Of a DNA stretch of 64,000 nt, positions 11,433-60,231 are shown in pieces. Position 1 is the stretch's first letter. Every line of letters starts with the position of its first letter. Origin of the DNA: a bacterium (lineage in GTDB: Bacteria > Patescibacteriota > Minisyncoccia > Minisyncoccales > RBG-13-42-11); the NCBI GenBank assembly GCA_043817685.1, contig JBDRGQ010000006.1, positions 1,879 to 65,878 on the forward strand, written 5' to 3'. The notes beneath the pieces were generated by a model. It ran no database searches. It saw only the letters and a list, made by a program, of their open reading frames with translations, and was not told the DNA's origin. A program made the translations under genes and the position numbers.

Positions 11433-11882
11433 ATGAAGCCCTTAGCTGATAACAAAAAAGCATATTTCGATTATGAAATTCTAGAAAAGTATGAAGCAGG
11501 AATTTCTTTGATTGGACAAGAAGTAAAGTCAATAAAACAAGGCCATATGAGTTTAAGCGGTTCTTATGTGGTGATAAGGGGGAATGAAGCTTTTTTACTA
11601 GGAGTTCATGTTCCTCCTTATCAGCCTAAAAATGCCCCCAAAGAATATGACCCCCAAAGGACAAGAAAACTTCTTTTAAGGAAGCAGGAAATAAACTATT
11701 TAATCGGAAAAACTAAAGAGAAAGGGTTGACTTTAGTGCCATTAAGGGTGTATACTCTGAAAGGTAATATCAAATTAGAATTTGGAGTGGCTAGAGGGAA
11801 AAAACAGAAAGATAAGAGAGAAACGATAAAGAAACGAGAAACGGAAAGAGATATGAAAAGAGAGTTAAACCTGAGGGGGTGA
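11433..11882 (+). CDS. smpB: SsrA-binding protein SmpB
   Basis: NKKAYFDYEILEKYEAGISLIGQEVKSIK is the conserved SmpB core. The ORF track starts at 11394. I prefer ATG 11433 (or 11424) because TAAAAT at 11420-11425 lies just upstream. The stop TGA is at 11880-11882. Confidence 0.9.
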   Translation: MKPLADNKKAYFDYEILEKYEAGISLIGQEVKSIKQGHMSLSGSYVVIRGNEAFLLGVHVPPYQPKNAPKEYDPQRTRKLLLRKQEINYLIGKTKEKGLTLVPLRVYTLKGNIKLEFGVARGKKQKDKRETIKKRETERDMKRELNLRG

Positions 11883-12217
11883 AAGGCTTCGACAGAAAAT
11901 CTAATTAAAATATGCAAGCCGAGTTATTAGATCTTGTAAAACTAATAAAGAAATAAGTGCCAACTTATTCAAACAACCAGCATTAGCAATAGCTTAATGC
12001 CATCTCGTCTGTTGATTCTCGCTAGGCAGAGTCGAGGTGTCATATTAGCGAGATAGATAGTTTTTTTGATTCGGGAAAACTATTAAAGATGGTTCTGGGT
12101 CAATGGTATAGATTTTTTGCCCGGTTTAAACTCTATATCTTAGATGAAACCGGTCTACGCTTGTAGAAATATTTTAAAGAAATTTTTTGGACAGGGGTTC
12201 AATTCTCCTCACCTCCA
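11875..12217 (+). ncRNA. ssrA: tmRNA (ssrA)
   Basis: 5' GGGGGUG (11875-11881) pairs with 3' CACCUCC (12210-12216) and includes a G3:U wobble, followed by discriminator A. T-arm is AGGGG-UUCAAUU-CUCCU. An in-frame tag ORF GCC AAC ... GCT TAA (11959-11997) encodes ANLFKQPALAIA. It lies directly after smpB. Confidence 0.9.
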
Positions 12218-12233
12218 CTAACAATATAAAAAA

Positions 12234-21170: not shown

Positions 21171-21246
21171 GGTGAGCGTAGTGTAGTGGCCCAGCACAAG
21201 AGTTTGTGGAACTCTTAGGGGGAGTTCGAATCTCCTCGCTCACCCA
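21171..21246 (+). tRNA. tRNA-His (anticodon GTG)
   Basis: Cloverleaf with anticodon stem AGAGT/ACTCT and loop TTGTGGA. The extra 5' G(-1) pairs with C73 (GGTGAGCG...CGCTCACC). T-arm is GGAGTTCGAATCTCC. Confidence 0.92.
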
Positions 21247-40829: not shown

Positions 40830-41039
40830 ATGATTGAAGACAAAGTTTTAAATCCTTTCGTCAGCGATGACGAAGAAGAAACTACAGAAGAGACTCCTGA
40901 GAAGGAAACTGAGCCTACGGATCAGGCTGAAGAAGAAACTCCTTCAGAAGACGCTCCTTCGACAGAAGACGCTCCTTCAACAGAAGAGACTCCTTCAGAA
41001 GACGCTCCTTCAACAGAAGAGACTCCAACTGAGGAATAA
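40830..41039 (+). CDS. hypothetical highly acidic tandem-repeat protein
   Basis: 69 aa, MIEDKVLNPFVSDDEEE... followed by EETPS/EDAPST repeats. It has its own promoter, a leader of about 110 nt and a terminator. Confidence 0.45.
   Translation: MIEDKVLNPFVSDDEEETTEETPEKETEPTDQAEEETPSEDAPSTEDAPSTEETPSEDAPSTEETPTEE
40932..41036 (+). repeat. in-frame 15/18-nt tandem repeats (33-nt super-unit)
   Basis: Units are gaagaaactccttca / gaagacgctccttc(g/a)aca / gaagagactcc(ttca/aact). The string gaagacgctccttcaacagaagagactcc occurs twice. Confidence 0.85.
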
Positions 41040-41058
41040 ATGTAACTAGCAAAAGAAA

Positions 41059-49075: not shown

Positions 49076-50869
49076 TTATCCTGCCAGATTTTCCCTGGCT
49101 TTTTTTATTTTCAAAATCTCTTCAGGAGAAGTTGTAATGAATTGGTCTTCGGCGTAAGAAGCCATTACTTTAATAACTACATGTTTTTGCCCTGCAAAAA
49201 AGATTCCCTCTCCAACTTCAGCTTGCAGTAATGTCATTTTTTCTCCATCAGTCAGATTAAATGTTTTTTGAACGGTTTCAATAGTTGCCGAACTTTGTTT
49301 CATTAATAATTGCAAAGAAGAGTTAGTTATAATCGGTTTTCCGTAGTCTGACTTCATAAAATCATTAACGTCCTGGGTGATAGTCGTGACTCCCAGCCAG
49401 TATTTCCTAGCCCTTTTGCATATTCCGTACAAGAAGGATGCGCCGTCATTAGATTGCATAATCCACCAGGCTTCGTCAACAACCAAAATTCTTTTCTTTA
49501 ATTCTGATCTAACCTTATTCCAGATATATCTCATAATAATGAACATCGCCATGGGCCTTAATTCGTCTTCCATGTCCCTTATTCCGAAAACGACAAAAGA
49601 GCTGTCCATTGAGATGTTTGTGTTTTGGTTAAAAAAATTAGAGAAAGTTCCTTTTGTAAATTTCCTAACCCTTTTTACCAGAGAGTCCGCTCCTTCCATA
49701 CCTTTTAATACTTCTTCAAAATCAGACATTAAGGGAGTTTTTTCTTTCCAAGTAGAAGAATCTGATTCTGGGGTTATGTCTTTGGAAGCATAGGTTTCCG
49801 TAAGAGCCCTATCTATAATAGCATCTTCTTCTGGGCTTAATCCTCCAAACATTATCCTCAAAAGTCCTACAAGGTTTATTATGTTTGAACGAAGGATGTC
49901 TCCCGGCTTTTCATCTTCTCTCGGCTCTGGTAGATCAAAAGGATTTATATGGTTTTCCGAAGACAAAGACATGCTTAAAAATGATCCCCCAATAGCGTTA
50001 GAAAGATTCTGGTATTCGTTTTCAGGGTCTAAAATAATAATATCAACGCCTAGCATCAAAGACCTGAGAATTTCAAGCTTTATTGCGTATGATTTTCCCG
50101 AACCGGACTTGGCAAAAACTATAGAATTTGCATTTTCTAAGCTGAATCTATCAAATAAAATAAGGGAGTTATTATGCATATTTATTCCATAAAGAATCCC
50201 TTCATTAGAACTTAAGTCAGAAGAAACAAAAGGAAAGGTGCTGGATAAGGCCCCTGTGTCCATGGAGGTGTGAACCATTAATTGATCTAACCCGTAAGGA
50301 GAAGTTGAATTAAATCCCTCTTTTTGCTGATATAGGGCAGGTTTAATATATATTAGTCTGGATTCTAGGATTGACCGTAAAGTAACCTCTATATCTTTTA
50401 GGTCTTTTTCTTCTTTTCCGTAAGCTGTAAGATATAATCCGAATTTAAACATTCTCTCTTGAGCTGTCTGCAGTCTGTCTCTTAGGCTTTCAATATCTTG
50501 GTAGGCTGTTTCCAAAGCAGGATCTCTTACAAGTCCTTTTTCTTCTCTGTCCATTATTTCTGCCTGGACCTCAGTAACTCTTTTTCTTAATTGTCTTAGA
50601 ACGTTTCCAGTCTCAATAGGATGGATATGAAAGCTAATATCCATTGGAGTGTCCAAATTAATTATCGGAGAGAACCAGGCGGTGCTTAGATATCTGGGGT
50701 AAGAAAAAATAAAGAATGACTTAGTGATTCTTTTGCCCAAATTCAAAGATCCTGGTTTTACCATTATTGAAGAGGGGGCAATGATGTCCTTGGCGTCCAT
50801 TGCCTTTACTTCAAACAGTTTTTCCGGCTCTTCAGCTTTCTTTTTTTTATTTAAAAAAGGTAGTTGCAT
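49076..50869 (-). CDS. virB4: VirB4/TrbE-family type IV secretion ATPase (C-terminal two-thirds of a split VirB4)
   Basis: Walker A FAKSGSGKSYA and Walker B RILVVDEAWWIM. The N-region IIAPSSIMVKPGSLNLGKRITKSFFIFSYPRYLSTAWFSPIINL is typical of Gram-positive-type VirB4. Confidence 0.85.
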   Translation of the reverse strand: MQLPFLNKKKKAEEPEKLFEVKAMDAKDIIAPSSIMVKPGSLNLGKRITKSFFIFSYPRYLSTAWFSPIINLDTPMDISFHIHPIETGNVLRQLRKRVTEVQAEIMDREEKGLVRDPALETAYQDIESLRDRLQTAQERMFKFGLYLTAYGKEEKDLKDIEVTLRSILESRLIYIKPALYQQKEGFNSTSPYGLDQLMVHTSMDTGALSSTFPFVSSDLSSNEGILYGINMHNNSLILFDRFSLENANSIVFAKSGSGKSYAIKLEILRSLMLGVDIIILDPENEYQNLSNAIGGSFLSMSLSSENHINPFDLPEPREDEKPGDILRSNIINLVGLLRIMFGGLSPEEDAIIDRALTETYASKDITPESDSSTWKEKTPLMSDFEEVLKGMEGADSLVKRVRKFTKGTFSNFFNQNTNISMDSSFVVFGIRDMEDELRPMAMFIIMRYIWNKVRSELKKRILVVDEAWWIMQSNDGASFLYGICKRARKYWLGVTTITQDVNDFMKSDYGKPIITNSSLQLLMKQSSATIETVQKTFNLTDGEKMTLLQAEVGEGIFFAGQKHVVIKVMASYAEDQFITTSPEEILKIKKARENLAG

Positions 50870-50877
50870 GTGTTAAG

Positions 50878-51501
50878 CTATTTAATTATTTCGGGGGGTA
50901 TTTCTGGATAATAGCCGACTTCCGCTTCTTCTGGATGATGTAAACTCCAGAACAGTTCAATTAATTCAGGTGTGTTTAAGGAGGTGCATTGCAATCCGCA
51001 TCTCCTTAACCCCAAAACAACAAATTCCACTCTTTGCCAAAGCTGCGATTTTGCTCTCTGGAACTGGTCTTCTGTCGGGGACTGTGTTGTTTTTTCTTTT
51101 TTAAAACCAGGAATTTCAATAAGAGTGAAAGGGACAACGGCAAAAAAGGTTTTTGAAAGAATTTGACCTCCGGCAATTAGTTCTTTTATGAATTTTTGGT
51201 ATTCAACAGTTTGGACTTTTAGCAATTCATTCTTTTGTTTTTTGGCTATTTCGGAAAGCTTGTCTAGATATCCTGTAATATTAAGCTTTCTGGACTGTAT
51301 TACGATTTCTAAAGAAAAGTCCAAGGAGTTTAAAAAATTTTGAAATTGATAAATAGTTGCTTCTTGTTCTTCTATAGATTTAAGGGCAAAGTTAAGAGAA
51401 GAAACCATAATAACCCCTCTTAGGGATTTATTTTTTAAAAGCACTACTCCTTCTCGAACTTCATCTATTTCTAGAAATTGTTGGGTTGATGCTTGAGGCA
51501 T
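50878..51501 (-). CDS. VirB4 N-terminal-domain-like protein (separate ORF)
   Basis: STQQFLEIDEVREGVVLLKNKSLRGVIMVSSLNFALKSIEEQEATIYQFQNFLNSLDFSLEIVIQSR resembles the extreme N-terminus of Tn916 Orf16/ConE-type VirB4 proteins. Confidence 0.55.
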   Translation of the reverse strand: MPQASTQQFLEIDEVREGVVLLKNKSLRGVIMVSSLNFALKSIEEQEATIYQFQNFLNSLDFSLEIVIQSRKLNITGYLDKLSEIAKKQKNELLKVQTVEYQKFIKELIAGGQILSKTFFAVVPFTLIEIPGFKKEKTTQSPTEDQFQRAKSQLWQRVEFVVLGLRRCGLQCTSLNTPELIELFWSLHHPEEAEVGYYPEIPPEIIK

Positions 51502-51911
51502 TATTTTGTATTGCTTTCTATATGATCTTTAATTTTCTTTAATCGGCTTCCTTCAGTTATTTTCAAAGGCAATTCCTCTTCTTCTTGTTTTTGGACTTTT
51601 TTAACTGGTTTTTGGACCCTCATAACAGGGGCTTCTTTCTTTTTCCAAATATACATTTTAGGCATGAGATTAAATTTTAAGAAGCTACTTAAAGTAGAAG
51701 GAAGACTTCTTCCATTAACTTTTAAAAAAGACATAGCCAAAGCTCCTCCAAGCAATATAATACAGGCGGCTATAAAAAAGAGGAAGGGGAGCATAAAATA
51801 AAGGATAAAACATGCTCCACCAGCCATTCCTATATAGATAAACTGACCAAAAGTAAATGGTCCAATAACCTTAGCTTCGTGTTCTATGAATTGAGGAACT
51901 ATAAATCTCAT
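51501..51911 (-). CDS. PrgI/VirB3-like small membrane protein
   Basis: MRFIVPQFIEHEAKVIGPFTFGQFIYI followed by two TM helices matches the PrgI-family pattern (VP..I..E.K..G.LT.RQ). It lies immediately upstream of the VirB4 genes. Confidence 0.65.
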   Translation of the reverse strand: MRFIVPQFIEHEAKVIGPFTFGQFIYIGMAGGACFILYFMLPFLFFIAACIILLGGALAMSFLKVNGRSLPSTLSSFLKFNLMPKMYIWKKKEAPVMRVQKPVKKVQKQEEEELPLKITEGSRLKKIKDHIESNTK

Positions 51912-52361: not shown

Positions 52362-52390
52362 TTGACAAAATATAATTTATATGTTATGAT
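52362..52390 (+). promoter_or_regulatory. sigma70-type promoter of the embedded plus-strand small gene
   Basis: TTGACA (52362-52367), a 17-nt spacer, then TATGAT (52385-52390). Confidence 0.6.
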
Positions 52391-52392
52391 TT

Positions 52393-52419
52393 GTTTATCA
52401 AAACGTGTTTATCAAAACG
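52393..52419 (+). promoter_or_regulatory. tandem direct repeat, operator-like (2 x GTTTATCAAAACG at 14-nt period)
   Basis: Exact 13-mers at 52393-52405 and 52407-52419, between the -10 element and the SD of the small gene. On the minus strand each copy contains TTGATA. Confidence 0.6.
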
Positions 52420-52438
52420 ATAGAAAGGAGATGCGGAA

Positions 52439-52681
52439 ATGTTGTTCTTTAAACCATCTAATGCAAGGAAGAGAGGCGACAAAGTTGCTGTTATCGGCAG
52501 GAGAGCCAAGGAAGAAAGCTTTTATCTTGAGAGAGAGAAAGCTTTACAAGTTGACCTTAAGACAACGGCCGAGGCAGTTACCAGGCTGCGTAAAGAGGTA
52601 GAGGCCTGGTATGCTGGCGATGGCAAAGATCTTATCTCTTCCCCATTCCATGTCAAATATCCGGTTAATCCTGACAAGTAG
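52439..52681 (+). CDS. hypothetical 80-aa protein (candidate regulator; possible ribbon-helix-helix-like layout)
   Basis: SD AGGAG 8 nt before the ATG. It has its own promoter and terminator, and GC-rich codons (the 60-nt line at 52561 counts 36/60 GC). It is the only plus-strand gene inside the minus-strand T4SS-like block. Confidence 0.6.
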   Translation: MLFFKPSNARKRGDKVAVIGRRAKEESFYLEREKALQVDLKTTAEAVTRLRKEVEAWYAGDGKDLISSPFHVKYPVNPDK

Positions 52682-52709
52682 TTACCCTTTTCTCATAAGT
52701 CATCCCCTT

Positions 52710-52739
52710 AGGGCAGACATAGCGCTGCCCTTTTTCTTT
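52710..52739 (+). terminator. intrinsic terminator of the small plus-strand gene
   Basis: AGGGCAG (52710-52716) / CTGCCCT (52725-52731) with an 8-nt loop, followed by TTTTTCTTT. Confidence 0.75.
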
Positions 52740-52748
52740 AAAGCAGGA

Positions 52749-55499
52749 CTATTTTTTCAATCTTTTTTGTTTTTGTATGTACTTAAGATTGTCTTTGATA
52801 TCAGATATTCCCTTCTTATATCCTTCAGCCCTCTTTTCAAAATCAGGCGGTTTGGCTTTCCCCAAAACCTTATATTCGTTTTCTAATTTTTCTAAGTTGA
52901 TTCTTTGGCTTCTTTCCATTCTTTCCAACTCTTCACGAGGCAGAGTCTCTTTCTCTCGGGCCATTATGTTAGCCAGTTCTGATTCCGCAATAGTGTCTAA
53001 ATCACCTCCTAATTCTTTTTCTAAGTCTGTCATCCTAAGATCTCCTCCAATTTCCTTGATCTGTCTGCGTTTATCTCTCATTTTTTCCAATATTTTAATA
53101 TATTCAAGTTGCTCTTCAGCTGTCCTCGCTGGGTTTTCTTTTAACTGTTTATATCTTTCGCTGTACTTTCTTAAATCCTCGATATGTTTGTCTTTTTCTC
53201 TTTGTGATTCTTCTGGAGATCTTCTAATGGTTTCCCTCGTTTGCCCGCCCGAGGTTGTAAATTCTTTTTGTTCTTCCGCCGTTCTTCTAAATCCTCTGTT
53301 TTTTAAATATGTCCGTCTGCCTTTCTCATATTCGGGCGAGGTCGGAACAATAGGTCTTTCAGCAGATCTTTCTCTTTGAGTCGCTGTTCTGTAAGCAGCA
53401 TATTGTTCTGGAGCCATTTCTTCAATTCTTTGCCTCTCTCTTTGTCTCTCTCTATTATCCCTGATTTGTAGAAGTAGCCTCTTTCTATCTTCTCCTCCCG
53501 CAAGAGGTCTCAATCCTAGATCCTGGGCCGCATTTCCTGTAACATATACTGCTGCCTTCGGGTTATTGTCTTTAAACCATGCTAGCCCTTTTCGCCCAGC
53601 CGTTTTATTGAAGTCGTCGGAAAAACTATCGAACTCAATAGCCAATTTCCCAATTTGAGCGCCATCGATATTCTTAAGGATTGATTCTTCTATTAATCCC
53701 TGTTTGTCTAACCAAGTCCCTTCTTTAAATTGTTTTAGATCGTCTCCTTTGCTTTTTGCAAAAAGCATTCCTTTAATGTTCCCGTATTTTTCTTTGTCTT
53801 TTTCGCTCAATTTAAAGCCCATTGCGGACAGATCATTGTCATCCATTTCATGCATATATCCTCTGGCCAATGTTTCGGCTTGTTTTATTGCTCCGCTGGC
53901 ATTGGCCTGGGAAGCTAAAGAGGTTATTCTTAATTTATCAATACTTCCATCTTCCTGAAGTAGCTTCTTCCACCCTTTTCCTTTAGAAATTCCACCAGTC
54001 AATAACCCCATTTCTTTGCTTGTGTCGCCGCTCCTACGAGCGTTTTTAATCTTTGATAACAAAAGGTTCGGATCATTTATCTTATTTGCTTCTGCCTCAG
54101 CTACCGTCATTCCCTTCATATTTTCCTCCGTTAGTGTTGTCCCAGCCACTTTATACCCCAATTCAACTCCTTGACGAGCCCATTTGCCCAGCGTCATCCC
54201 CATTTTTTGTCTTCTATTCATTTGTATCGGATTACCGGCCTCTTGGGCTAATTCCATTTTTCTTTCATTCGCTAATTGTTTATTAGCAGCATTTTTCATT
54301 TCTCCAATCGTCCCCCTGCCCATGGGCATAAGCCCTCTCGTAGCAACCGTACCTGCAATGCCTTTTCCGAAATCAATCAAAGCTTGAGCTCCTTTTGGCA
54401 TAAAGCTTTTCCCAACAAATAAAAGTACTGCCATATAAATAAAAATGGCAAAGTAATAAACAAGTTGATCTTGTATGTTTGCTAAAGCAAGACCAGGAAT
54501 GTTTAGAGCTGCTATTCCTTGTGGGGCTAAAAATCTTATTGCTCCAAAGCCCAATGTTAAAAAGAACAAAAAGAAAACCCCCAAGAGAAGCCATTCTAAC
54601 AATGTTTTATACCATTGAGTCCAAAAGCTTTTTGTTTGGGGAAGAATTAATGCCAAGAAAGCTAATGGAGATAGGATGATTAGTATTTGAATAACAAAAA
54701 CTCTTGCTGCGAATAAAAATGCAAAAGCAAGAAAGGCTACTGCTAAAAGGAAGAAGAAAATAGCTTGGAGAGCCCAAATAATTATGTTTGGAAGTATAAT
54801 TGTCGTAAATAAGATTGAGAAAAGGATTTGGAAAAAAGAGGAAGCCATAGGTATGCTCCATGCCGCTCCTAGCGCAGCTATCCAGGCGATTATGCTAACT
54901 ACGACAGATCCTGCTGATTGGAAGAATACTCCCATAACTGTTGTAAAAAGAGATTCATTTGGTAGGACCGTATTGTAAAGAATTTGAGATATATCAACCA
55001 GCATTTTTACAAAGACCCAGCTAAAATTAAGCAAGACTGCCACTCCAAGTAATCTGGGCAAAGCCTTCTTAGCTTGAATATTTTCAATTTTTAAAATAAA
55101 ACCAAAAGCAATAACCAAGAGTATCAATATTAAAAACATATTAGACAAGCCAACGGTAAAATTCCAACCAGCTTGAGTCATTGGTTCAAGATTTGTCATC
55201 CATTGTCCTTGTTGAGAAATAAAGCTTTCTAAAAAATTAGTAGAAAGAGCCAAAAGTCCTAGCCCAACCAAGTAAAAGGATAAAACACTTATTACCGCAG
55301 CAAACATCGGTCCAGTTCTTTCGGAAATTCCTTGCAACAGATTATCAAAAATATCAAAAAGACCGACGTCTCCAACTCCAAAAACAGCAGAAACTGGTTC
55401 TGGCAATAAAATAGAGAAAACAGCAAAAACTAAAATTAAATATTTGAATTTATTAAGGATATTTTTAAATAGTTTTTTATCTATACAGAATTTTTTCAT
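52749..55499 (-). CDS. VirB6/TrbL-like polytopic membrane protein with a long charged C-terminal extension
   Basis: Signal/TM followed by about 10 TM helices in the first 430 aa or so, then about 490 aa rich in R/E/K/Q (RERQRERQRIEEM...). I prefer ATG 55499 (MKKFCIDKK). Position relative to the pilin and VirB4 genes fits VirB6. Confidence 0.55.
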   Translation of the reverse strand: MKKFCIDKKLFKNILNKFKYLILVFAVFSILLPEPVSAVFGVGDVGLFDIFDNLLQGISERTGPMFAAVISVLSFYLVGLGLLALSTNFLESFISQQGQWMTNLEPMTQAGWNFTVGLSNMFLILILLVIAFGFILKIENIQAKKALPRLLGVAVLLNFSWVFVKMLVDISQILYNTVLPNESLFTTVMGVFFQSAGSVVVSIIAWIAALGAAWSIPMASSFFQILFSILFTTIILPNIIIWALQAIFFFLLAVAFLAFAFLFAARVFVIQILIILSPLAFLALILPQTKSFWTQWYKTLLEWLLLGVFFLFFLTLGFGAIRFLAPQGIAALNIPGLALANIQDQLVYYFAIFIYMAVLLFVGKSFMPKGAQALIDFGKGIAGTVATRGLMPMGRGTIGEMKNAANKQLANERKMELAQEAGNPIQMNRRQKMGMTLGKWARQGVELGYKVAGTTLTEENMKGMTVAEAEANKINDPNLLLSKIKNARRSGDTSKEMGLLTGGISKGKGWKKLLQEDGSIDKLRITSLASQANASGAIKQAETLARGYMHEMDDNDLSAMGFKLSEKDKEKYGNIKGMLFAKSKGDDLKQFKEGTWLDKQGLIEESILKNIDGAQIGKLAIEFDSFSDDFNKTAGRKGLAWFKDNNPKAAVYVTGNAAQDLGLRPLAGGEDRKRLLLQIRDNRERQRERQRIEEMAPEQYAAYRTATQRERSAERPIVPTSPEYEKGRRTYLKNRGFRRTAEEQKEFTTSGGQTRETIRRSPEESQREKDKHIEDLRKYSERYKQLKENPARTAEEQLEYIKILEKMRDKRRQIKEIGGDLRMTDLEKELGGDLDTIAESELANIMAREKETLPREELERMERSQRINLEKLENEYKVLGKAKPPDFEKRAEGYKKGISDIKDNLKYIQKQKRLKK

Positions 55500-55501
55500 A
55501 T

Positions 55502-56284
55502 TTAAAATGTTTCTATTTCCTTCAGCCTTATGCATCTAATAGGATCTCCTACTTCGTCTGTGGCGGTTCCTCCCCTAAGTATTATTTGTTGTTTGTCTCC
55601 TCCGCAACCTCCCCAGAAACCCGTACGAGGATATAACTCTAGATATCCCATACAGCCATCAGGAAGAGCAGGAAGAGACGTAAAAGTAATTGAGCTTCCA
55701 CCTGCGATATAGATCTCTGCAGAATCTCCAGCCTCAATGGTATATCCTTTAATCAAAACTCTTTCGCACGGAATTATTTCAAAGATAGAGGCAAAGTCTT
55801 GTGCGCAGAAGCCATGAAAACATTTATAGTTTTTCCCATATTTTGCTATGCATTCATCGTCAGTATCACAAGCTCCCAATGTTTCTCCGGGAGGTTCAGT
55901 GGTTAATGCTTGGAAAGTAGTTAAGTCTGGGTTGATTGTGTTTAAAATGAGCCAAGAAGATAATAAAAGGATTAATCCGAAAAAAGCTGATTTTATTCTT
56001 TCCATAGCATTTTTCATAGAAAGAGGATCTCCAAAAGATGTTAGGTATTGGATGCCGGAAATTATCAAAGAAATAAAAACAGCCAGTCCCCCTAGGGAGA
56101 TTCCCCATTCGTAGAGATATTTTATTAAGTCAGGCAGGGAACTTTTGTCGTTCAGGGGTGTCCCCACAGGTGAATTAGGCCATTCTACCTGTAAAGCTAA
56201 AGCCGTGGAATTAATTATAAAAAATCCGAATATCAATAATAGGAATAAGATAATTTTCTTGTTGTTTTTTGTAAGCCCTACCAT
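55502..56284 (-). CDS. VirB2/TrbC-like T4SS pilin module fused to a C-terminal cysteine-containing domain
   Basis: Signal peptide (…NSTALA), then a two-TM pilin-like core (YLYEWGISLGGLAVFISLIISGIQYL...AFFGLILLLSSWLILN), then a domain of about 130 aa with 8 Cys. Confidence 0.55.
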   Translation of the reverse strand: MVGLTKNNKKIILFLLLIFGFFIINSTALALQVEWPNSPVGTPLNDKSSLPDLIKYLYEWGISLGGLAVFISLIISGIQYLTSFGDPLSMKNAMERIKSAFFGLILLLSSWLILNTINPDLTTFQALTTEPPGETLGACDTDDECIAKYGKNYKCFHGFCAQDFASIFEIIPCERVLIKGYTIEAGDSAEIYIAGGSSITFTSLPALPDGCMGYLELYPRTGFWGGCGGDKQQIILRGGTATDEVGDPIRCIRLKEIETF

Positions 56285-56293
56285 ATTTGAATA

Positions 56294-56323
56294 ATTATAC
56301 CATTGATTAATTTATTATAGCAA
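56294..56323 (-). promoter_or_regulatory. candidate promoter for the pilin gene (near-leaderless geometry)
   Basis: On the minus strand: TTGCTA (56323-56318), an 18-nt spacer, then TATAAT (56299-56294). The ATG follows 9 nt later with no SD. Confidence 0.4.
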
Positions 56324-56351
56324 GAAAAAGAGCCTCTAGGGAAGAGGCTCT
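56324..56351 (-). terminator. intrinsic terminator after the lipoprotein gene
   Basis: AGAGCCTCT (56329-56337) / AGAGGCTCT (56343-56351) stem with a 5-nt loop. On the minus strand it is followed by UUUUUC. Confidence 0.75.
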
Positions 56352-56381
56352 TGGAGTTGCAAAAGAGAGACAGATAGATGG

Positions 56382-56921
56382 CTACTGGATGACCGAAGCA
56401 TCTAATAGAATTATAGTATGCAAGTCATTGTATGAACCATCGTAGCCGTAGCTCGCTCTAATAACAACCGTATCTCCTTTTTCTGCTTTCGTCATCGACA
56501 TGAAACTTTCATATCCTTCTTCAAGATTGGTTTCAGCACGAACACCTTCGCTGCTGATGGTAACCGTGTATCCGTCAGTTCCCGGTCCCAGGATGATGAC
56601 GTTAACCATTCTTCCTGTCCATGGGTTGACGTTGCGAGGGTTACGTATGTCTGCATCAGCGATTATTCCGGAAATAGTAATTATATCGCCTTGTTCGTAT
56701 TTATTTTTCAGCGATTTCTTGATGAATTCCGCAACGGTGACAGGTTTTTCTTTTGGCTGCTCGGTCGTCTTCTCAGTTGGCTGCTCTGCTGGGATCTTCG
56801 TTGTAGGCGTATTTTCCGGAGCTATCGCCTTGGCGTTATCCGCGGATGGTTTAGAGCAGGCGGAGAATGGTATGACGAGTAAAGAGATTGCTAGAAAGAT
56901 CAGTATTAATTTTTTAAACAT
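56382..56921 (-). CDS. hypothetical lipoprotein
   Basis: Signal peptide with the lipobox-like PFSAC, followed by a Pro/Thr/Glu linker. Strong SD GGAGGT with a TTGACA promoter (56995-56990). GC-rich (the 60-nt line at 56521 counts 29/60 GC). Confidence 0.6.
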   Translation of the reverse strand: MFKKLILIFLAISLLVIPFSACSKPSADNAKAIAPENTPTTKIPAEQPTEKTTEQPKEKPVTVAEFIKKSLKNKYEQGDIITISGIIADADIRNPRNVNPWTGRMVNVIILGPGTDGYTVTISSEGVRAETNLEEGYESFMSMTKAEKGDTVVIRASYGYDGSYNDLHTIILLDASVIQ

Positions 56922-56999: not shown

Positions 57000-57644
57000 T
57001 TAAAAAACGATTGAGTTTAGTATCTCTTCTGCTTCGTTTTTAAACATTTCCCAGTTTGTTTGTGGAGTAGAGAAAATAATCATATAAGTTTTATTCTCAG
57101 TAAAAACAATTTTACTTTTTGAATAAAAATTAGGCTCCCCAGTTTTTTCAGATATCATTTCTAAAGAAGTGAAATAGTCTGTTGTTTCTAAAATTTTAAT
57201 TTCTGTTTTTCCTTCTTGGCTGGCAATATCTTGTTCTATTTCTTTTATAATCTCCTCTAGTTTTTTTTCAGAATCAAATTGTGCCACTGTCAAAAAAGCC
57301 AAGCTTTGTGTCTTGGGATCTATCCGTTGGGCAAGAAATAATATTTCAGACTTTGTCAAATCTGCCTTGGCCTGGTCTGGAACAATTGAGAGAATATCAC
57401 TTACTTCTGTCCAGTCGGCAGGGTATTGCATTTCTAAGAGTCCATCTGAAGATGTCCACTCTAAAAGCCCTTCTTTTTTCGATGTCAAATAGTCATCTAA
57501 GTTTGTTTCTGGCATTTCAATCTTTGGCAAATTAATTTCACTTAGAGACTGATTAAAATCTTTGAATCTTTGAAGGCTTAAAAAACTAAGGGATAAGATT
57601 GCGATAAATAATATAAAAAAATAAGTTTTGTTGGATATTTTCAT
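57000..57644 (-). CDS. bitopic membrane protein (N-terminal TM plus ectodomain of about 180 aa; VirB8-like architecture only)
   Basis: MKISNKTYFFILFIAILSLSFLSL forms the TM, followed by a soluble alpha/beta-looking domain. There is no sequence motif tying it to VirB8; the architecture and context are the only evidence. Confidence 0.35.
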   Translation of the reverse strand: MKISNKTYFFILFIAILSLSFLSLQRFKDFNQSLSEINLPKIEMPETNLDDYLTSKKEGLLEWTSSDGLLEMQYPADWTEVSDILSIVPDQAKADLTKSEILFLAQRIDPKTQSLAFLTVAQFDSEKKLEEIIKEIEQDIASQEGKTEIKILETTDYFTSLEMISEKTGEPNFYSKSKIVFTENKTYMIIFSTPQTNWEMFKNEAEEILNSIVF

Positions 57645-57645
57645 A

Positions 57646-60231
57646 TTAAAATTGCCACCATTGTCCAAATATTCCTATTTGGAAACCGACAATCCTTAAG
57701 AATAAATTTAATATTGTCCAAGAAAGAAACAATATTCCATACCCGATGCCAGCCGCTTTCCAGATAAGTTTTATTCTAGTTAAAAATAGAGAATCTTGGA
57801 ATTTAATAGAGAAATAAAACATTAATCCTGTCCCGAGAACAAGTACCCCCAATGCCAATGGACCAAATGTCCATAGAATAAAATCAACAATATTCCTTAT
57901 TAAAAGAAAAATATGTTTGAATTGACAAGTTTCTCTTTCGTTCCATGACGTTTCTGGGTTGTCTTCATTCCTGCCGCAGGGAACTAATCCTATTGCTTGA
58001 GAGGACGCTTCTCCTTTGACAAAAGAGAAATTAATTAATTCACTCCAGTTTCCAGTATCTTGGCAGTTTATATCCATGCAAGGTCTTATTCTCCATTGGT
58101 ATTTACCCAAGCAAATTAAATTTAACAAATCACTATTAGCTTGTTCGGTTATCGTTTCTGGAATTATGGTTTTGGCGGCACATGCTTGGCTTGTCTCTTC
58201 AGAAGATGGTTCTGTAAAGAGTACTTCGTATTGATAGAAGTTTGCCCCCTCTACTCTTTCCCAAGTAATAAATTGTGTTTTCTGGTTAGTAAAGAAGCTT
58301 CCATTCTTCTCTGGAGAAAAATGTTCAGGAGGGTTCAGTCTAAAAGTGGTGAAAGACTGAGGAGTGCTGTAATTTCCACATACTCTTCCCTGTTCTCTGG
58401 CACAAGTTTTTACTTTCCAGCTATAATCGGTTTCTTGTTTCAGCTCAGGGTAAGCCAATGAAGCAGATGTATTCGTGGTAATAATATCTTTATTTAATCC
58501 TTCTCCTTGGGCATTTAAAACATAAGATTTGGCTCCAGGTACTGCCTTCCAATTGAAATTAACAGGGATAGGCACACCAGTTTGGGGCAATGAAGTGAGT
58601 TGGGGGGATCCCCCAGTTGTTCTAAAAGACCAAGGCCCTCCCCACGAATCTTCGCATTGCTCTGAATTATAATCAGAACATGGTTGTACTGACCACTCAT
58701 ACACAGTGTTAAGAGAGAGCTGAGGGGAGTCTAACGCTATATTCGCTTCTTTAGTCTTTCCCGAAGGTAGATTTTCTATCTTATAGTTAAAAGAATTGGC
58801 TCCGGGGCTACTCCATCTGAGAGATAAGGGCAATCCCACTGGGATTGTCGTATTGTTAGGAGGATTTACTAATATTGTTTCTAGATCCCAATCACCGGTA
58901 TTGAATCTCCATAACTGGCTATAGTCACTACATTCTTGTCCATCGTCATCTTTGCAGGCGGCCACTTTCCAGGCATAAGTAGTTTGCTTAGTAAAAAAAG
59001 ACCCGTCATCTAAAAATTCTTCTGGAGGCAAAGACTCTCTCGGAACCGGTATGATTTCTGGATCCAATATTATTGGAAGACATTGTCCACTAGCTTCTAA
59101 TTGCTCATGGCACAAATCGTTTTCTGAATAATAAATTAAAACTTTATAGGATAATGGTTTATAGTAGATTTCTTCATCAAATACTCTTTCTTCATATATA
59201 TTAGGATCTTCTATCTCGCACCATTTCAAGCTTTCAATTTCTTCCTGGTTAAGAATATTAGCCATTCCTAGCCCTTCCCAGTCCAAATCATAAGGATTAA
59301 ACGGTTCTGGGGCTGGATTAGTGGTAAAAGACCAAGTGCTTTCCGGCCCACAACTTTCCCCTTTGGTATCGCAGCAGGCCTTAACATGCCATGTATAAGT
59401 TTGATTGGATTTGAAAAAGCAGGAATTGGGGGGCAAAAATTCCGACTTATCTAAAACCGCAGTATGGCTGCTTGTCGTCGCTCCGTTTTCGTCTAATAGT
59501 TCGCCTTCAATTTTTAAGACGTATGAACGGACGCATTCTGATTTTTCATAGCATTCTGCGGGAGCATAACAGTTTTGAGGGCAAGTGTCTGAACATCCTT
59601 CATGGCAGGTATTGCCTTCTTTCCATCCGCCGATCCATCCTCTGGCATCGTCCCAGTCAAGCTTTACCGGTAATAGGACATTGTCTGGATTTTCGCTTTC
59701 TTCCGGGTTACAGAAATCTGTAGGATAATTGGAATTGTTGTAATATCTCGGATTCACAGGTTCATCAATATAGCTGGCATTGCATTTGCATTGAGGCATA
59801 TTCAATCCCCAGTGGGTGACCGTACACGATCTTACAGCTTCTTGCCAGCTTCCGCATTCTTTGCAGATTTCGGGATTTGTACATTGCGCTCGGCAGGAAC
59901 CGCAGGAACAGCATGAAGAAGCTGGTCCGCACACGCTTTGGCACTTTTTTATTTGAATGTCTGGTTCTTTGCCGTTTGTACTAGCATTGAACTCTTCCCA
60001 GCTACCACTACAACTAAAATTTGTACATCTATCTACACAACAATGGCTTGTACATCCTCCTAATTCATCCCAAGAGCAACACTCCCGTTCACAACAAACT
60101 GACCAGCTGCTACCTATGGAAAAACCTTCACCGCAGCCCGTAGTATGGGAAACAGCTTTAGCAGAAGAGGGGAATAAAAAAAACAATCCGAAAAGAAATA
60201 CGGTAAAAATAAATAGTACCTTGAATTTCAT
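57646..60231 (-). CDS. giant secreted chimeric protein: Cys-rich N-domain, five repeated beta-domains, and a C-terminal VirB2-like pilin membrane module
   Basis: Signal peptide (…PSSAKA) and 29 Cys in residues 33-233. Five recurrences of Y-x-W-x-[VI]-x-x-C...C...[WF]-[SRN]-F-x-[TF] occur at about residues 279, 419, 511, 603 and 711. The C-terminus LVPCGRNED...CQFKHIFLLIRNIVDFILW plus two TM helices resembles T4SS pilin domains. Confidence 0.6.
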   Translation of the reverse strand: MKFKVLFIFTVFLFGLFFLFPSSAKAVSHTTGCGEGFSIGSSWSVCCERECCSWDELGGCTSHCCVDRCTNFSCSGSWEEFNASTNGKEPDIQIKKCQSVCGPASSCCSCGSCRAQCTNPEICKECGSWQEAVRSCTVTHWGLNMPQCKCNASYIDEPVNPRYYNNSNYPTDFCNPEESENPDNVLLPVKLDWDDARGWIGGWKEGNTCHEGCSDTCPQNCYAPAECYEKSECVRSYVLKIEGELLDENGATTSSHTAVLDKSEFLPPNSCFFKSNQTYTWHVKACCDTKGESCGPESTWSFTTNPAPEPFNPYDLDWEGLGMANILNQEEIESLKWCEIEDPNIYEERVFDEEIYYKPLSYKVLIYYSENDLCHEQLEASGQCLPIILDPEIIPVPRESLPPEEFLDDGSFFTKQTTYAWKVAACKDDDGQECSDYSQLWRFNTGDWDLETILVNPPNNTTIPVGLPLSLRWSSPGANSFNYKIENLPSGKTKEANIALDSPQLSLNTVYEWSVQPCSDYNSEQCEDSWGGPWSFRTTGGSPQLTSLPQTGVPIPVNFNWKAVPGAKSYVLNAQGEGLNKDIITTNTSASLAYPELKQETDYSWKVKTCAREQGRVCGNYSTPQSFTTFRLNPPEHFSPEKNGSFFTNQKTQFITWERVEGANFYQYEVLFTEPSSEETSQACAAKTIIPETITEQANSDLLNLICLGKYQWRIRPCMDINCQDTGNWSELINFSFVKGEASSQAIGLVPCGRNEDNPETSWNERETCQFKHIFLLIRNIVDFILWTFGPLALGVLVLGTGLMFYFSIKFQDSLFLTRIKLIWKAAGIGYGILFLSWTILNLFLRIVGFQIGIFGQWWQF

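Follow-up and report, generated by a model that had tools for sequence, protein, structure and literature searches.

The window analysed here, that is, the whole stretch of 64,000 nt from contig JBDRGQ010000006.1, carries between positions 49076 and 60231 a run of genes that all lie on the (-) strand. In the order of transcription, these encode an 861-aa protein, a 222-aa protein and a 179-aa lipoprotein, followed by a terminator and a promoter, and then a 260-aa pilin, a VirB6-like protein, a 151-aa protein, a PrgI/VirB3 protein, a TrsD/TraC-like protein and VirB4 (Table 1). The 260-aa protein is probably the major VirB2-like pilin, and the sole stand-alone one that can be recognised, of a chromosomal, oriC-proximal type IV secretion system (T4SS) in a Nealsonbacteria-like Patescibacterium. 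It would bear an outward-facing ectodomain, and we infer that it polymerises. This interpretation is favoured because the protein belongs to the Pfam family PF18895, lies in a conserved locus with VirB4, TrsD, PrgI and VirB6-like genes, is preceded by a conserved promoter and carries a family-specific, fast-evolving ectodomain.

The open reading frame (ORF) of the pilin fills exactly the interval to which the original prediction had assigned a protein with a signal peptide and a two-transmembrane (TM) VirB2-like core, and both of these features were recovered. An identical protein is present in NCBI, from a metagenome-assembled genome ('hypothetical protein ABIA08_01120 [bacterium]'), and 137 further homologues were found at E <= 1e-3, the few named ones belonging to Candidatus Nealsonbacteria or to the 'Patescibacteria group'. 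With the exact protein and these homologues in existence, and with a promoter motif that is unique in the window, the features of the pilin are more than chance. The signal peptide, which was judged from sequence, hydropathy and AlphaFold2 (AF2) helices rather than with a dedicated predictor, would consist of an n-region (KNNKK), an h-region (IILFLLLIFGFFII) and a c-region (TALA/LQ, the slash marking the cleavage site), and Ala30, at position -1, is invariant among 37 aligned homologues. The mature N-terminal segment contains a WPxSP motif, found in 107 of the 120 homologues listed.

The hairpin that follows matches PF18895 (T4SS_pilin) over residues 50-117 with 38.2 bits, against a gathering cut-off of 26.6, and this cut-off is passed by all 37 aligned relatives. 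AF2 places helices at residues 50-82 and 87-116 (mean predicted local distance difference test, pLDDT, of the full model: 86), Kyte-Doolittle peaks lie at residues 61-84 and 96-114, and the loop between the helices (GDPLSMKNAMERIKS; MKNAMERIKS) is positively charged through K91, R96 and K98. With a predicted signal peptide followed by two hydrophobic helices and a short positive loop joining them, the protein has the arrangement expected of PF18895 members. Positions Y56, Y58, E59, W60, G66 and G77 of the hairpin are invariant. Short families of hydrophobic hairpins draw compositional hits, and members of this family weakly match unrelated TM families; the protein could then be a generic secreted or membrane Cys-rich protein without a role in a T4SS, its PF18895 match arising from hydrophobic composition. 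This explanation is very improbable and is already largely refuted by the synteny and profile results, given that the curated cut-off is exceeded throughout the aligned relatives, that the invariant positions are polar and aromatic, that VirB4, PrgI and TrsD are strictly syntenic in the related loci L001-L004, and that profile-profile homology links the hairpin to a second module of the same locus.

The genes for VirB4, the TrsD-like protein, PrgI and the VirB6-like protein are all found within 7 kb of the pilin gene on the same strand. Beyond VirB4 lie jag, yidC and a 449-aa ORF taken as dnaA by synteny. The same gene order surrounds pilins that are 45-51% identical (L001/L002, L003 and L004), with ksgA on one side and jag-yidC-yidD-rnpA-dnaA-dnaN on the other; the adjacency of yidC, rnpA and dnaA is seen in L001, L002 and L004, and VirB4, PrgI and TrsD keep strictly to this synteny in each of the four related loci examined. 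Neither a relaxase nor a coupling protein was found among the locus genes scanned, and no other pilin-like ORF was found in the window by a family hidden Markov model and a screen of unannotated gaps for two-TM ORFs. An oriC-proximal, relaxase-less T4SS with VirB2-like pilins, derived from systems of the mating-pair-formation type FATA (MPF-FATA), has been described for Patescibacteria (PMC12102498), and the locus is of this published type.

The distinctive part of the protein lies downstream of the hairpin. The region of residues 125-260 (136 aa) contains 8 Cys, at positions 139, 145, 155, 160, 173, 211, 227 and 251; the original prediction had given the same count, with seven of them in the strings that it quoted, the eighth being C173 in IIPCERV. 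Helix 2 is followed by an extension of at least 48 aa (median 162 aa) in all 120 homologues listed, Cys-rich in every case and with an even number of Cys in 112 of them. Directly after the helix, a segment comprising I117, T122 and 'NPxLTTF' is nearly invariant and gives way to a variable Pro/Thr linker and a 4-Cys knot, the whole cap-linker-knot segment ranging from 30 to 88 aa among relatives. For this segment, only weak matches to Nodulin_late, defensin-like and EB were obtained. The extension ends in a beta domain of ~90 aa, for which the AF2 domain model (pLDDT 87) predicts 8 strands. This terminal domain occurs in 90 of the 120 homologues listed, always at the extreme C-terminus, the other 30 differing in the extension, and about a quarter of close cores bear other C-terminal domains. 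The pairing of C211 with C227 and of C173 with C251 in disulfides is suggested because Cys usage covaries among relatives: where position 251 is Ser, a Cys has been gained in another strand.

A profile of the beta domain, compared with 1.84 billion representative proteins, gave only 37 hits at E <= 1e-3. Nearly all of these are proteins of 230-350 aa that are matched at their C-terminus, i.e. pilins, the exceptions being SRCR and HYR repeat proteins, in which 30-55 of the 91 profile positions are covered. Sequence-profile searches with the C-terminal domain yielded nothing significant in Pfam or PDB, and Foldseek found no significant match for the beta domain in PDB or BFVD (best E 0.07-0.1). 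The beta domain is therefore a hallmark of this pilin lineage, to which it is essentially restricted, and not a widely shared module. The label of 'cargo' previously given to the C-terminal domain does not hold in the sense of a free-floating module.

A nearly invariant NPxLTTF segment followed by a variable Pro/Thr linker would also suit a protein that is cut after INPxLTTF, in which case a short pilin would polymerise and the C-terminal region would be a pro-domain or a released product, the Cys-rich domain being shed or acting as a soluble factor. C-terminal processing is known in P- and H-type pilins, such as RP4 TrbC and TrhA (PMC12037004). However, the known trimmings take 4-27 residues and not a folded domain of ~140 aa, no TraF/TrhF-like peptidase was seen among the locus genes scanned, and the domain is kept at the extreme C-terminus in three quarters of the relatives listed (90/120). 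Moreover, a paralogue decorated at the N-terminus exists, and permanent display fits this better, which leaves cleavage an improbable explanation.

Two resemblances of the C-terminal domain to known folds have been considered. The hairpin P-x-x-C-M-G-x-L-E-L-Y...G-C-G-D, at residues 201-229 (window positions 55600-55680, (-) strand), gives recurrent partial matches to scavenger receptor Cys-rich (SRCR) repeats, e.g. to PIT54 (PDB 9h0m) and to two long SRCR proteins. Homology with SRCR proteins (PIT54, P0130 and P0138) was rejected, since only ~30 profile positions are involved, those of the C-x-G-x-L-E-L-Y...G-C hairpin, and the scores come from a short motif summed over repeats; the SRCR-like hairpin is probably a short convergent motif.

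The second resemblance, to the double Greek key of beta-gamma-crystallins and Protein S (PF00030), is suggestive but unproven as evidence of kinship. In the second half of the C-terminal domain, Y218-x4-F223-x-G225 forms a crystallin-type signature, which is followed by IRCIRL (I-K/Q-S-I-K-L in relatives); the Ser position of the signature is held by C251 in the 260-aa protein and by Ser in several relatives. The sister pilin P0090 (452 aa) has bona fide crystallin domains, with several beta-gamma-crystallin-like motifs after the core and matches of both Crystall and Inhibitor_I36 from Pfam to one region. In relatives (P0044, P0049, P0084 and P0096), the first Greek-key motif is canonical (e.g. 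ILYSEENFKGKE...SAKSV). In the 260-aa protein itself, however, this first motif is degenerate or absent, and there is no Pfam hit to PF00030. Comparisons of the beta domain by hhalign are weak, both with the crystallin domain of P0090 (E 0.0018, probability 15%) and with a small profile (E 2.7e-4, probability 41%). No crystallin was found when two relatives were compared with PDB by phmmer, nor among the best 50 Foldseek matches listed for the beta domain.

The inner and outer parts of the pilin differ in their rates of change. Mean pairwise identity falls from 0.70 in the hairpin, whose length is constant, to 0.32 in the linker and knot and further to 0.25 in the beta domain. In the two closest orthologue pairs, the ratio of nonsynonymous to synonymous substitution rates (dN/dS) is 0.01 and 0.03 for the core and 0.12 and 0.34 for the C-terminal region. 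From these values, the outer part evolves roughly ten times faster than the core. Together with the even Cys counts of the extension, this contrast speaks for a C-terminal region that is exposed. Diversification by a diversity-generating retroelement was rejected, as no template repeat involving positions 55502-55900 is present in the 64-kb window.

A second pilin-like module is found at the C-terminus of the 861-aa protein. It scores 16.7 bits against PF18895 at residues 774-844, which is sub-threshold, and BLASTP between this core and that of the 260-aa protein gives E 0.004. A profile of the 861-aa family (A3) was built from homologues of the C-terminus and the syntenic 877-aa orthologue, and P0122, a homologue of this C-terminus, is annotated with PF18895 (precomputed). 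When A3 is aligned by hhalign with the profile of the 260-aa family (A1), E is 8e-8 with a probability of 94.5% over 51 columns, which correspond to the end of helix 1, the loop and helix 2. By these comparisons the two pilin modules are homologous, and the opposite fusion orders are therefore real, namely pilin followed by domain in the 260-aa protein and domain followed by pilin in the 861-aa protein. This is what the original prediction had proposed, and the similarity of the two cores, on which the proposal hung, is seen in both the BLASTP and the profile alignments. Its further suggestion, that pilin modules are decorated at either end, is borne out by P0140 (487 aa), in which a TIG domain precedes the core and the C-terminal domain follows it in one chain. 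In P0096 (421 aa), the C-terminal domain is followed by a further domain (precomputed PF18998). The 260-aa and 861-aa proteins share a predicted topology of signal peptide, outside segment, helix, K,R-rich loop, helix and outside segment, and the added domains would therefore be extracytoplasmic in both fusion orders. Ahead of its module, the 861-aa family shows in A3 an invariant motif, G-L-V-P-C-G-R ... T..E...C ... F (window positions 57700-58000, (-) strand), which differs from the WPxSPxGT of the 260-aa family. Some homologues of the module are far shorter, with 179-252 aa.

From the perspective of its expression, the pilin gene is set apart from the upstream genes by a terminator hairpin, which keeps its position in orthologous loci with base changes on both arms (aligned: L001, L003 and L004), and by the 30-nt promoter motif directly after it. 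The promoter TTGCTA-18-TATAAT put forward by the original prediction is present at 56323..56294; its TATAAT has a TG extension and ends 9 nt before the pilin ATG. If the motif is read instead as two tandem extended -10 boxes, the upstream box TGCTATAAT lies 20 nt upstream of TGGTATAAT and is equally conserved, and the second box ends 9 nt before the ATG in the window, 8 nt in most orthologous loci and 12 nt in two. Within the window, TTGCTATAATAAATNAANNANTGGTATAAT (30 nt) occurs only once, against 0 occurrences expected in shuffles. When one genome per GTDB species and the JGI metagenome collection were scanned for it, the motif turned up in one Nealsonbacteria genome and in 10 metagenome stretches, i.e. 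at 11 distinct loci besides the window. All these matches, including L001 9963-9992 and those in L003-L015, are located 8, 9 or 12 nt upstream of an orthologous pilin ATG and directly after the terminator hairpin, terminator and motif being kept across loci whose pilins are only 40-57% identical. This non-coding motif is thus better conserved than the pilin protein itself, which fits a strongly expressed structural gene. In metatranscriptomes of archaea-parasitising Paceibacteria, proteins with the T4SS pilin domain are among the five most highly expressed signal-peptide genes (PMC10936435).

A near-leaderless mRNA had been proposed for the pilin from the short distance between promoter and start codon and from the absence of a Shine-Dalgarno (SD) sequence. 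The spacing of the -10 box to an AUG without an SD is as described, but the missing SD carries no weight as an argument for a leaderless mRNA, since almost all of the ~50 genes of the window lack one, and the inference from one to the other was rejected on this ground. The equally conserved upstream box TGCTATAAT would allow a leader of ~22 nt instead, a reading that is equally valid. Hexamers resembling a -10 box occur 6-12 nt before the start in nine genes of the window, among them ksgA and the 861-aa gene, whose TAGAAT lies 8 nt ahead of the ATG at 60231. To have a short leader or none may therefore be common in this genome and not special to the pilin gene.

Table 1. Features of the pilin gene and of the surrounding T4SS locus (window coordinates).
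Feature	Position	Strand	Evidence or remarks
861-aa secreted, Cys-rich, Ig (immunoglobulin)-repeat protein ending in a pilin-like hairpin	57646..60231	(-)	orthologues in L001 (877 aa) and L003 (869 aa), position conserved
Pilin-like module of the 861-aa protein, residues 774-844	57700..57912	(-)	PF18895 sub-threshold, BLASTP, hhalign
222-aa membrane-anchored protein, weak PsbP-like similarity	57000..57668	(-)	syntenic in relatives (212-215 aa)
179-aa predicted lipoprotein (lipobox FSAC)	56382..56921	(-)	syntenic in relatives (175-177 aa)
Intrinsic terminator after the 179-aa lipoprotein gene	56328..56352	(-)	10-bp stem, then T-run; directly precedes the pilin promoter
Conserved 30-nt promoter motif TTGCTATAATAAATTAATCAATGGTATAAT	56294..56323	(-)	TTGCTA-18-TATAAT or two tandem extended -10 boxes, TGCTATAAT + TGGTATAAT
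Pilin ORF, 260 aa + stop	55502..56284	(-)	fills the predicted interval exactly
Signal peptide (predicted), residues 1-30	56195..56284	(-)	sequence, invariant Ala30, AF2 helix 6-30; probable cleavage at ALA/LQ
Mature N-terminal segment, residues 31-49	56138..56194	(-)	invariant W35-P36-x-S38-P39-x-G41
VirB2-like pilin hairpin, residues 50-117	55934..56137	(-)	PF18895, AF2, alignment
INPxLTTF cap, Pro/Thr linker, 4-Cys knot (C139, C145, C155, C160)	55775..55933	(-)	alignment, AF2
All-beta ectodomain (predicted), residues 171-260	55505..55774	(-)	C173, C211, C227, C251; AF2 domain model
Polytopic VirB6-like membrane protein, ~916 aa	52749..55499	(-)	position, weak transitive hit; ORF caller's start 55535
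PrgI family (VirB3-like)	51501..51911	(-)	PF12666, 31.6 bits vs cut-off 27
TrsD/TraC-like, 207 aa	50878..51501	(-)	NCBIfam VirB4_plasma residues 103-214, E 7e-11; weak TrsD hit; orthologue PF26593 TraC-like
VirB4-like T4SS ATPase, 597 aa	49076..50869	(-)	NF045971 conju_CD1110, 375 bits vs cut-off 325; PF19044, AAA_10

Among the neighbouring genes, that of the VirB6-like protein occupies the same position in L001, L003 and L004. Its likely start is the ATG at 55499, 2 nt past the pilin stop, which fits the orthologues better than the start chosen by the ORF caller, the latter overlapping the pilin by 34 nt. Its C-terminal ~500 aa form a tail rich in Lys, Glu and Arg, and its length exceeds that of most relatives (620-760 aa) by 200-300 aa, the L003 orthologue having 981 aa. 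Searches of the locus genes gave no direct Pfam or NCBIfam hit for it, and its homologues are likewise without a Pfam match; among the 57 homologues, the distant P0201 has a weak TrbL/VirB6 match (E 0.004), and three are labelled PF19590 in precomputed annotation. Because both are syntenic in relatives, the 179-aa lipoprotein and the 222-aa protein encoded between the two pilin-module genes are candidates for additional T4SS or surface components.

The 380 nt between the VirB6-like and 151-aa genes (52369-52748) contain no convincing ORF and no Rfam hit, and show several promoter-like sites; the counterparts of these genes in L001 are 5 nt apart. VirB4 appears to be split over two genes, the 207-aa product corresponding to the N-terminal part (about 103-214) of full-length Mycoplasma-type VirB4 and the 597-aa product to the remainder. 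In L003 (13410-16882), the VirB4 region includes intein-splicing and LAGLIDADG homing-endonuclease domains, and VirB4 there seems to be interrupted by one or more inteins. The rest of the window, as far as scanned, consists of housekeeping genes. A transfer-messenger RNA (11875-12220, (+) strand, tag peptide ANLFKQPALAIA) and tRNA-His(GTG) (21172-21245, (+) strand) are the sole RNA genes found in it by Rfam and ARAGORN, and a tandem 15/18-nt repeat at 40830-41041 on the (+) strand codes, within a 69-aa ORF, for an acidic, low-complexity peptide rich in E/T/P/S (EDAPSTEETPS...).

Compared with known systems, the locus is closest in composition to the T4SS_pilin (PF18895) loci of Patescibacteria (Wang et al. 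2023, PMC10633639; Quinonero-Coronel et al. 2025, PMC12102498). It shares with them the Pfam family, the VirB4, TrsD, PrgI/VirB3 and VirB6-like genes, the chromosomal position beside dnaA and the presence of more than one pilin-module gene per locus. The pilins of these studies are short, divergent and arranged in arrays, and globular extensions are not mentioned there, whereas the locus of the window has one stand-alone pilin with a 140-aa disulfide-rich ectodomain and a giant protein with a C-terminal pilin module. With the TrbC/VirB2/TraA/TrhA pilins (PF04956; F-, T- and H-pilus), the 260-aa protein has in common a signal peptide, a two-helix hairpin with a positive loop, termini on the same side and an operon with VirB3/VirB4/VirB6-type genes. 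It differs from them in the length of its mature form (~230 aa vs about 70-80 aa), in giving no PF04956 hit and in belonging to an organism that is presumed to be monoderm. Cyclisation of the TrbC/VirB2 type would be impossible with the ectodomain in place, and a scan of locus genes revealed no TraF-type peptidase. The Mbov_0395 family (NF045849), from integrative and conjugative elements (ICEs) of Mycoplasma, likewise comprises small hairpin proteins of monoderm MPF-FATA-type T4SSs and aligns to residues 53-117 (E 4e-5), but the ICE proteins have ~80 aa and no ectodomain, and the score, 23 bits, is under the cut-off of 40. Finally, type IV (type II secretion-like) pilins and minor pilins that have large C-terminal domains, and the hypervariable domains of flagellins, offer an analogy only, in that a buried, conserved polymerisation core is combined with a variable, disulfide-stabilised outer domain turned towards environment or host; their folds and machines are unrelated, and type IV pilins are built on one N-terminal helix and are cut at a prepilin peptidase site.

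As a mechanism, it is proposed that the 260-aa protein would be exported by Sec and cleaved by signal peptidase after Ala30. The hairpin would then insert with both termini outside and the K/R loop inside, a topology that the predicted signal peptide, the two helices and the K91/R96/K98 loop fit, and the Cys knot and the beta domain would fold oxidatively outside the cell, forming four disulfides. Extraction and polymerisation by the VirB4/VirB3/VirB6-like machine would give rise to a pilus or a short conduit, with the loop lining the lumen and with the WPxSPxGT segment and the ectodomain on the outer surface, where they would contact the host cell. The 861-aa protein might join the same assembly by means of its homologous hairpin, in low copy at the tip or base, and there display an adhesin-like ectodomain of far greater size. 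Structures of conjugative pili show the positive inter-helix loop directed to the lumen and the two termini next to each other at the opposite end of the subunit, the site of TrhA cyclisation (PMC12037004); by analogy, we take the terminus end of the subunit to be the pilus exterior. With the parameters of such a pilus (~90 Å wide, 12.1 Å rise, C5 symmetry; PMC12037004), the surface available per subunit comes, as a calculation and not a model, to ~690 Å^2 at a radius of 45 Å and ~990 Å^2 at 65 Å.

Several points weigh against this interpretation. On the calculated surface, there would be room for the 90-aa beta domain only with the Cys-knot linker keeping it away from the shaft. Canonical VirB2 pilins have ~70 aa in their mature form and are tightly packed. 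An appendage of 140 aa on every subunit is unprecedented and might block polymerisation. PF18895 is a name and not a tested function, and the alignment of the core to the pilin profiles, which the original prediction had called for, is significant with this family only: the 260-aa protein has no match to TrbC/VirB2 (PF04956) in Pfam, where weak sub-threshold matches are confined to 4 of the 37 relatives (best E 0.0053). A sequence profile search found no solved structure for any relative of the core and no pilin in PDB. The polytopic neighbour is called VirB6-like because of where its gene lies and of a single weak, transitive hit. Positive selection on the ectodomain was rejected as a region-wide signal, as dN/dS is raised but <1 and selection is on average purifying. 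Moreover, no pilus has yet been shown for any Patescibacteria T4SS (PMC12857230).

The main alternative dispenses with polymerisation: the hairpin would only anchor the protein in the membrane, or would be a channel subunit of the T4SS embedded there, and would hold the Cys-rich ectodomain at the cell surface. Monoderm MPF-FATA systems, the source of the VirB4 of Patescibacteria, are normally without pili (PMC12102498; PMC12857230), and VirB2 is required even in pilus-less T4SSs (PMC12857230). In addition, a bulky ectodomain could hinder helical packing, and a homologous hairpin anchors the ectodomain protein of 861 aa. The hairpin is nevertheless 70% identical, free of indels and marked by invariant positions, which suggests many protein-protein contacts; a structural polymer would accord with the strong, conserved promoter and with the high levels at which such genes are expressed, and the pilin gene is translationally adjacent to the VirB6-like gene. 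An anchor or channel subunit is therefore possible but on balance unlikely, and a polymerising pilin is the reading that we prefer.

The combination of a pilin core with a lineage-specific Cys-rich ectodomain, a giant partner with the opposite fusion order and an invariant promoter is not described in the literature searched, the family and the kind of system being already known. A more far-reaching picture can be drawn only tentatively, and we regard it as doubtful when taken as a whole: in Patescibacteria of Nealsonbacteria type, a VirB2-type pilus with a hypervariable, disulfide-locked ectodomain on each subunit, perhaps folded as a crystallin-like double Greek key, and with the 861-aa adhesin at the tip or base, would fix to which host, possibly a methanogenic archaeon, the epibiont attaches and from which it feeds, the pilin being expressed from a very strong, near-leaderless promoter. 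In Southlakia epibionticum, the T4SS, including its pilin arrays, is essential (PMC10633639; review PMC12857230). In the one Patescibacterium that is genetically tractable, epibiotic growth depends on T4SS genes. A pilin with a conserved core and a fast-evolving, lineage-restricted outer domain is a candidate for the surface by which this machine contacts the host, and this outer domain could be expressed alone for binding and structural studies. The 30-nt promoter motif offers a DNA marker by which such genes can be found in metagenomes, and it lends itself to testing how translation is initiated in the SD-poor genomes of the candidate phyla radiation. Finally, the known designs of VirB2-type pilins, in other cases tiny subunits packed with lipid, would now include subunits that bear domains at either terminus.

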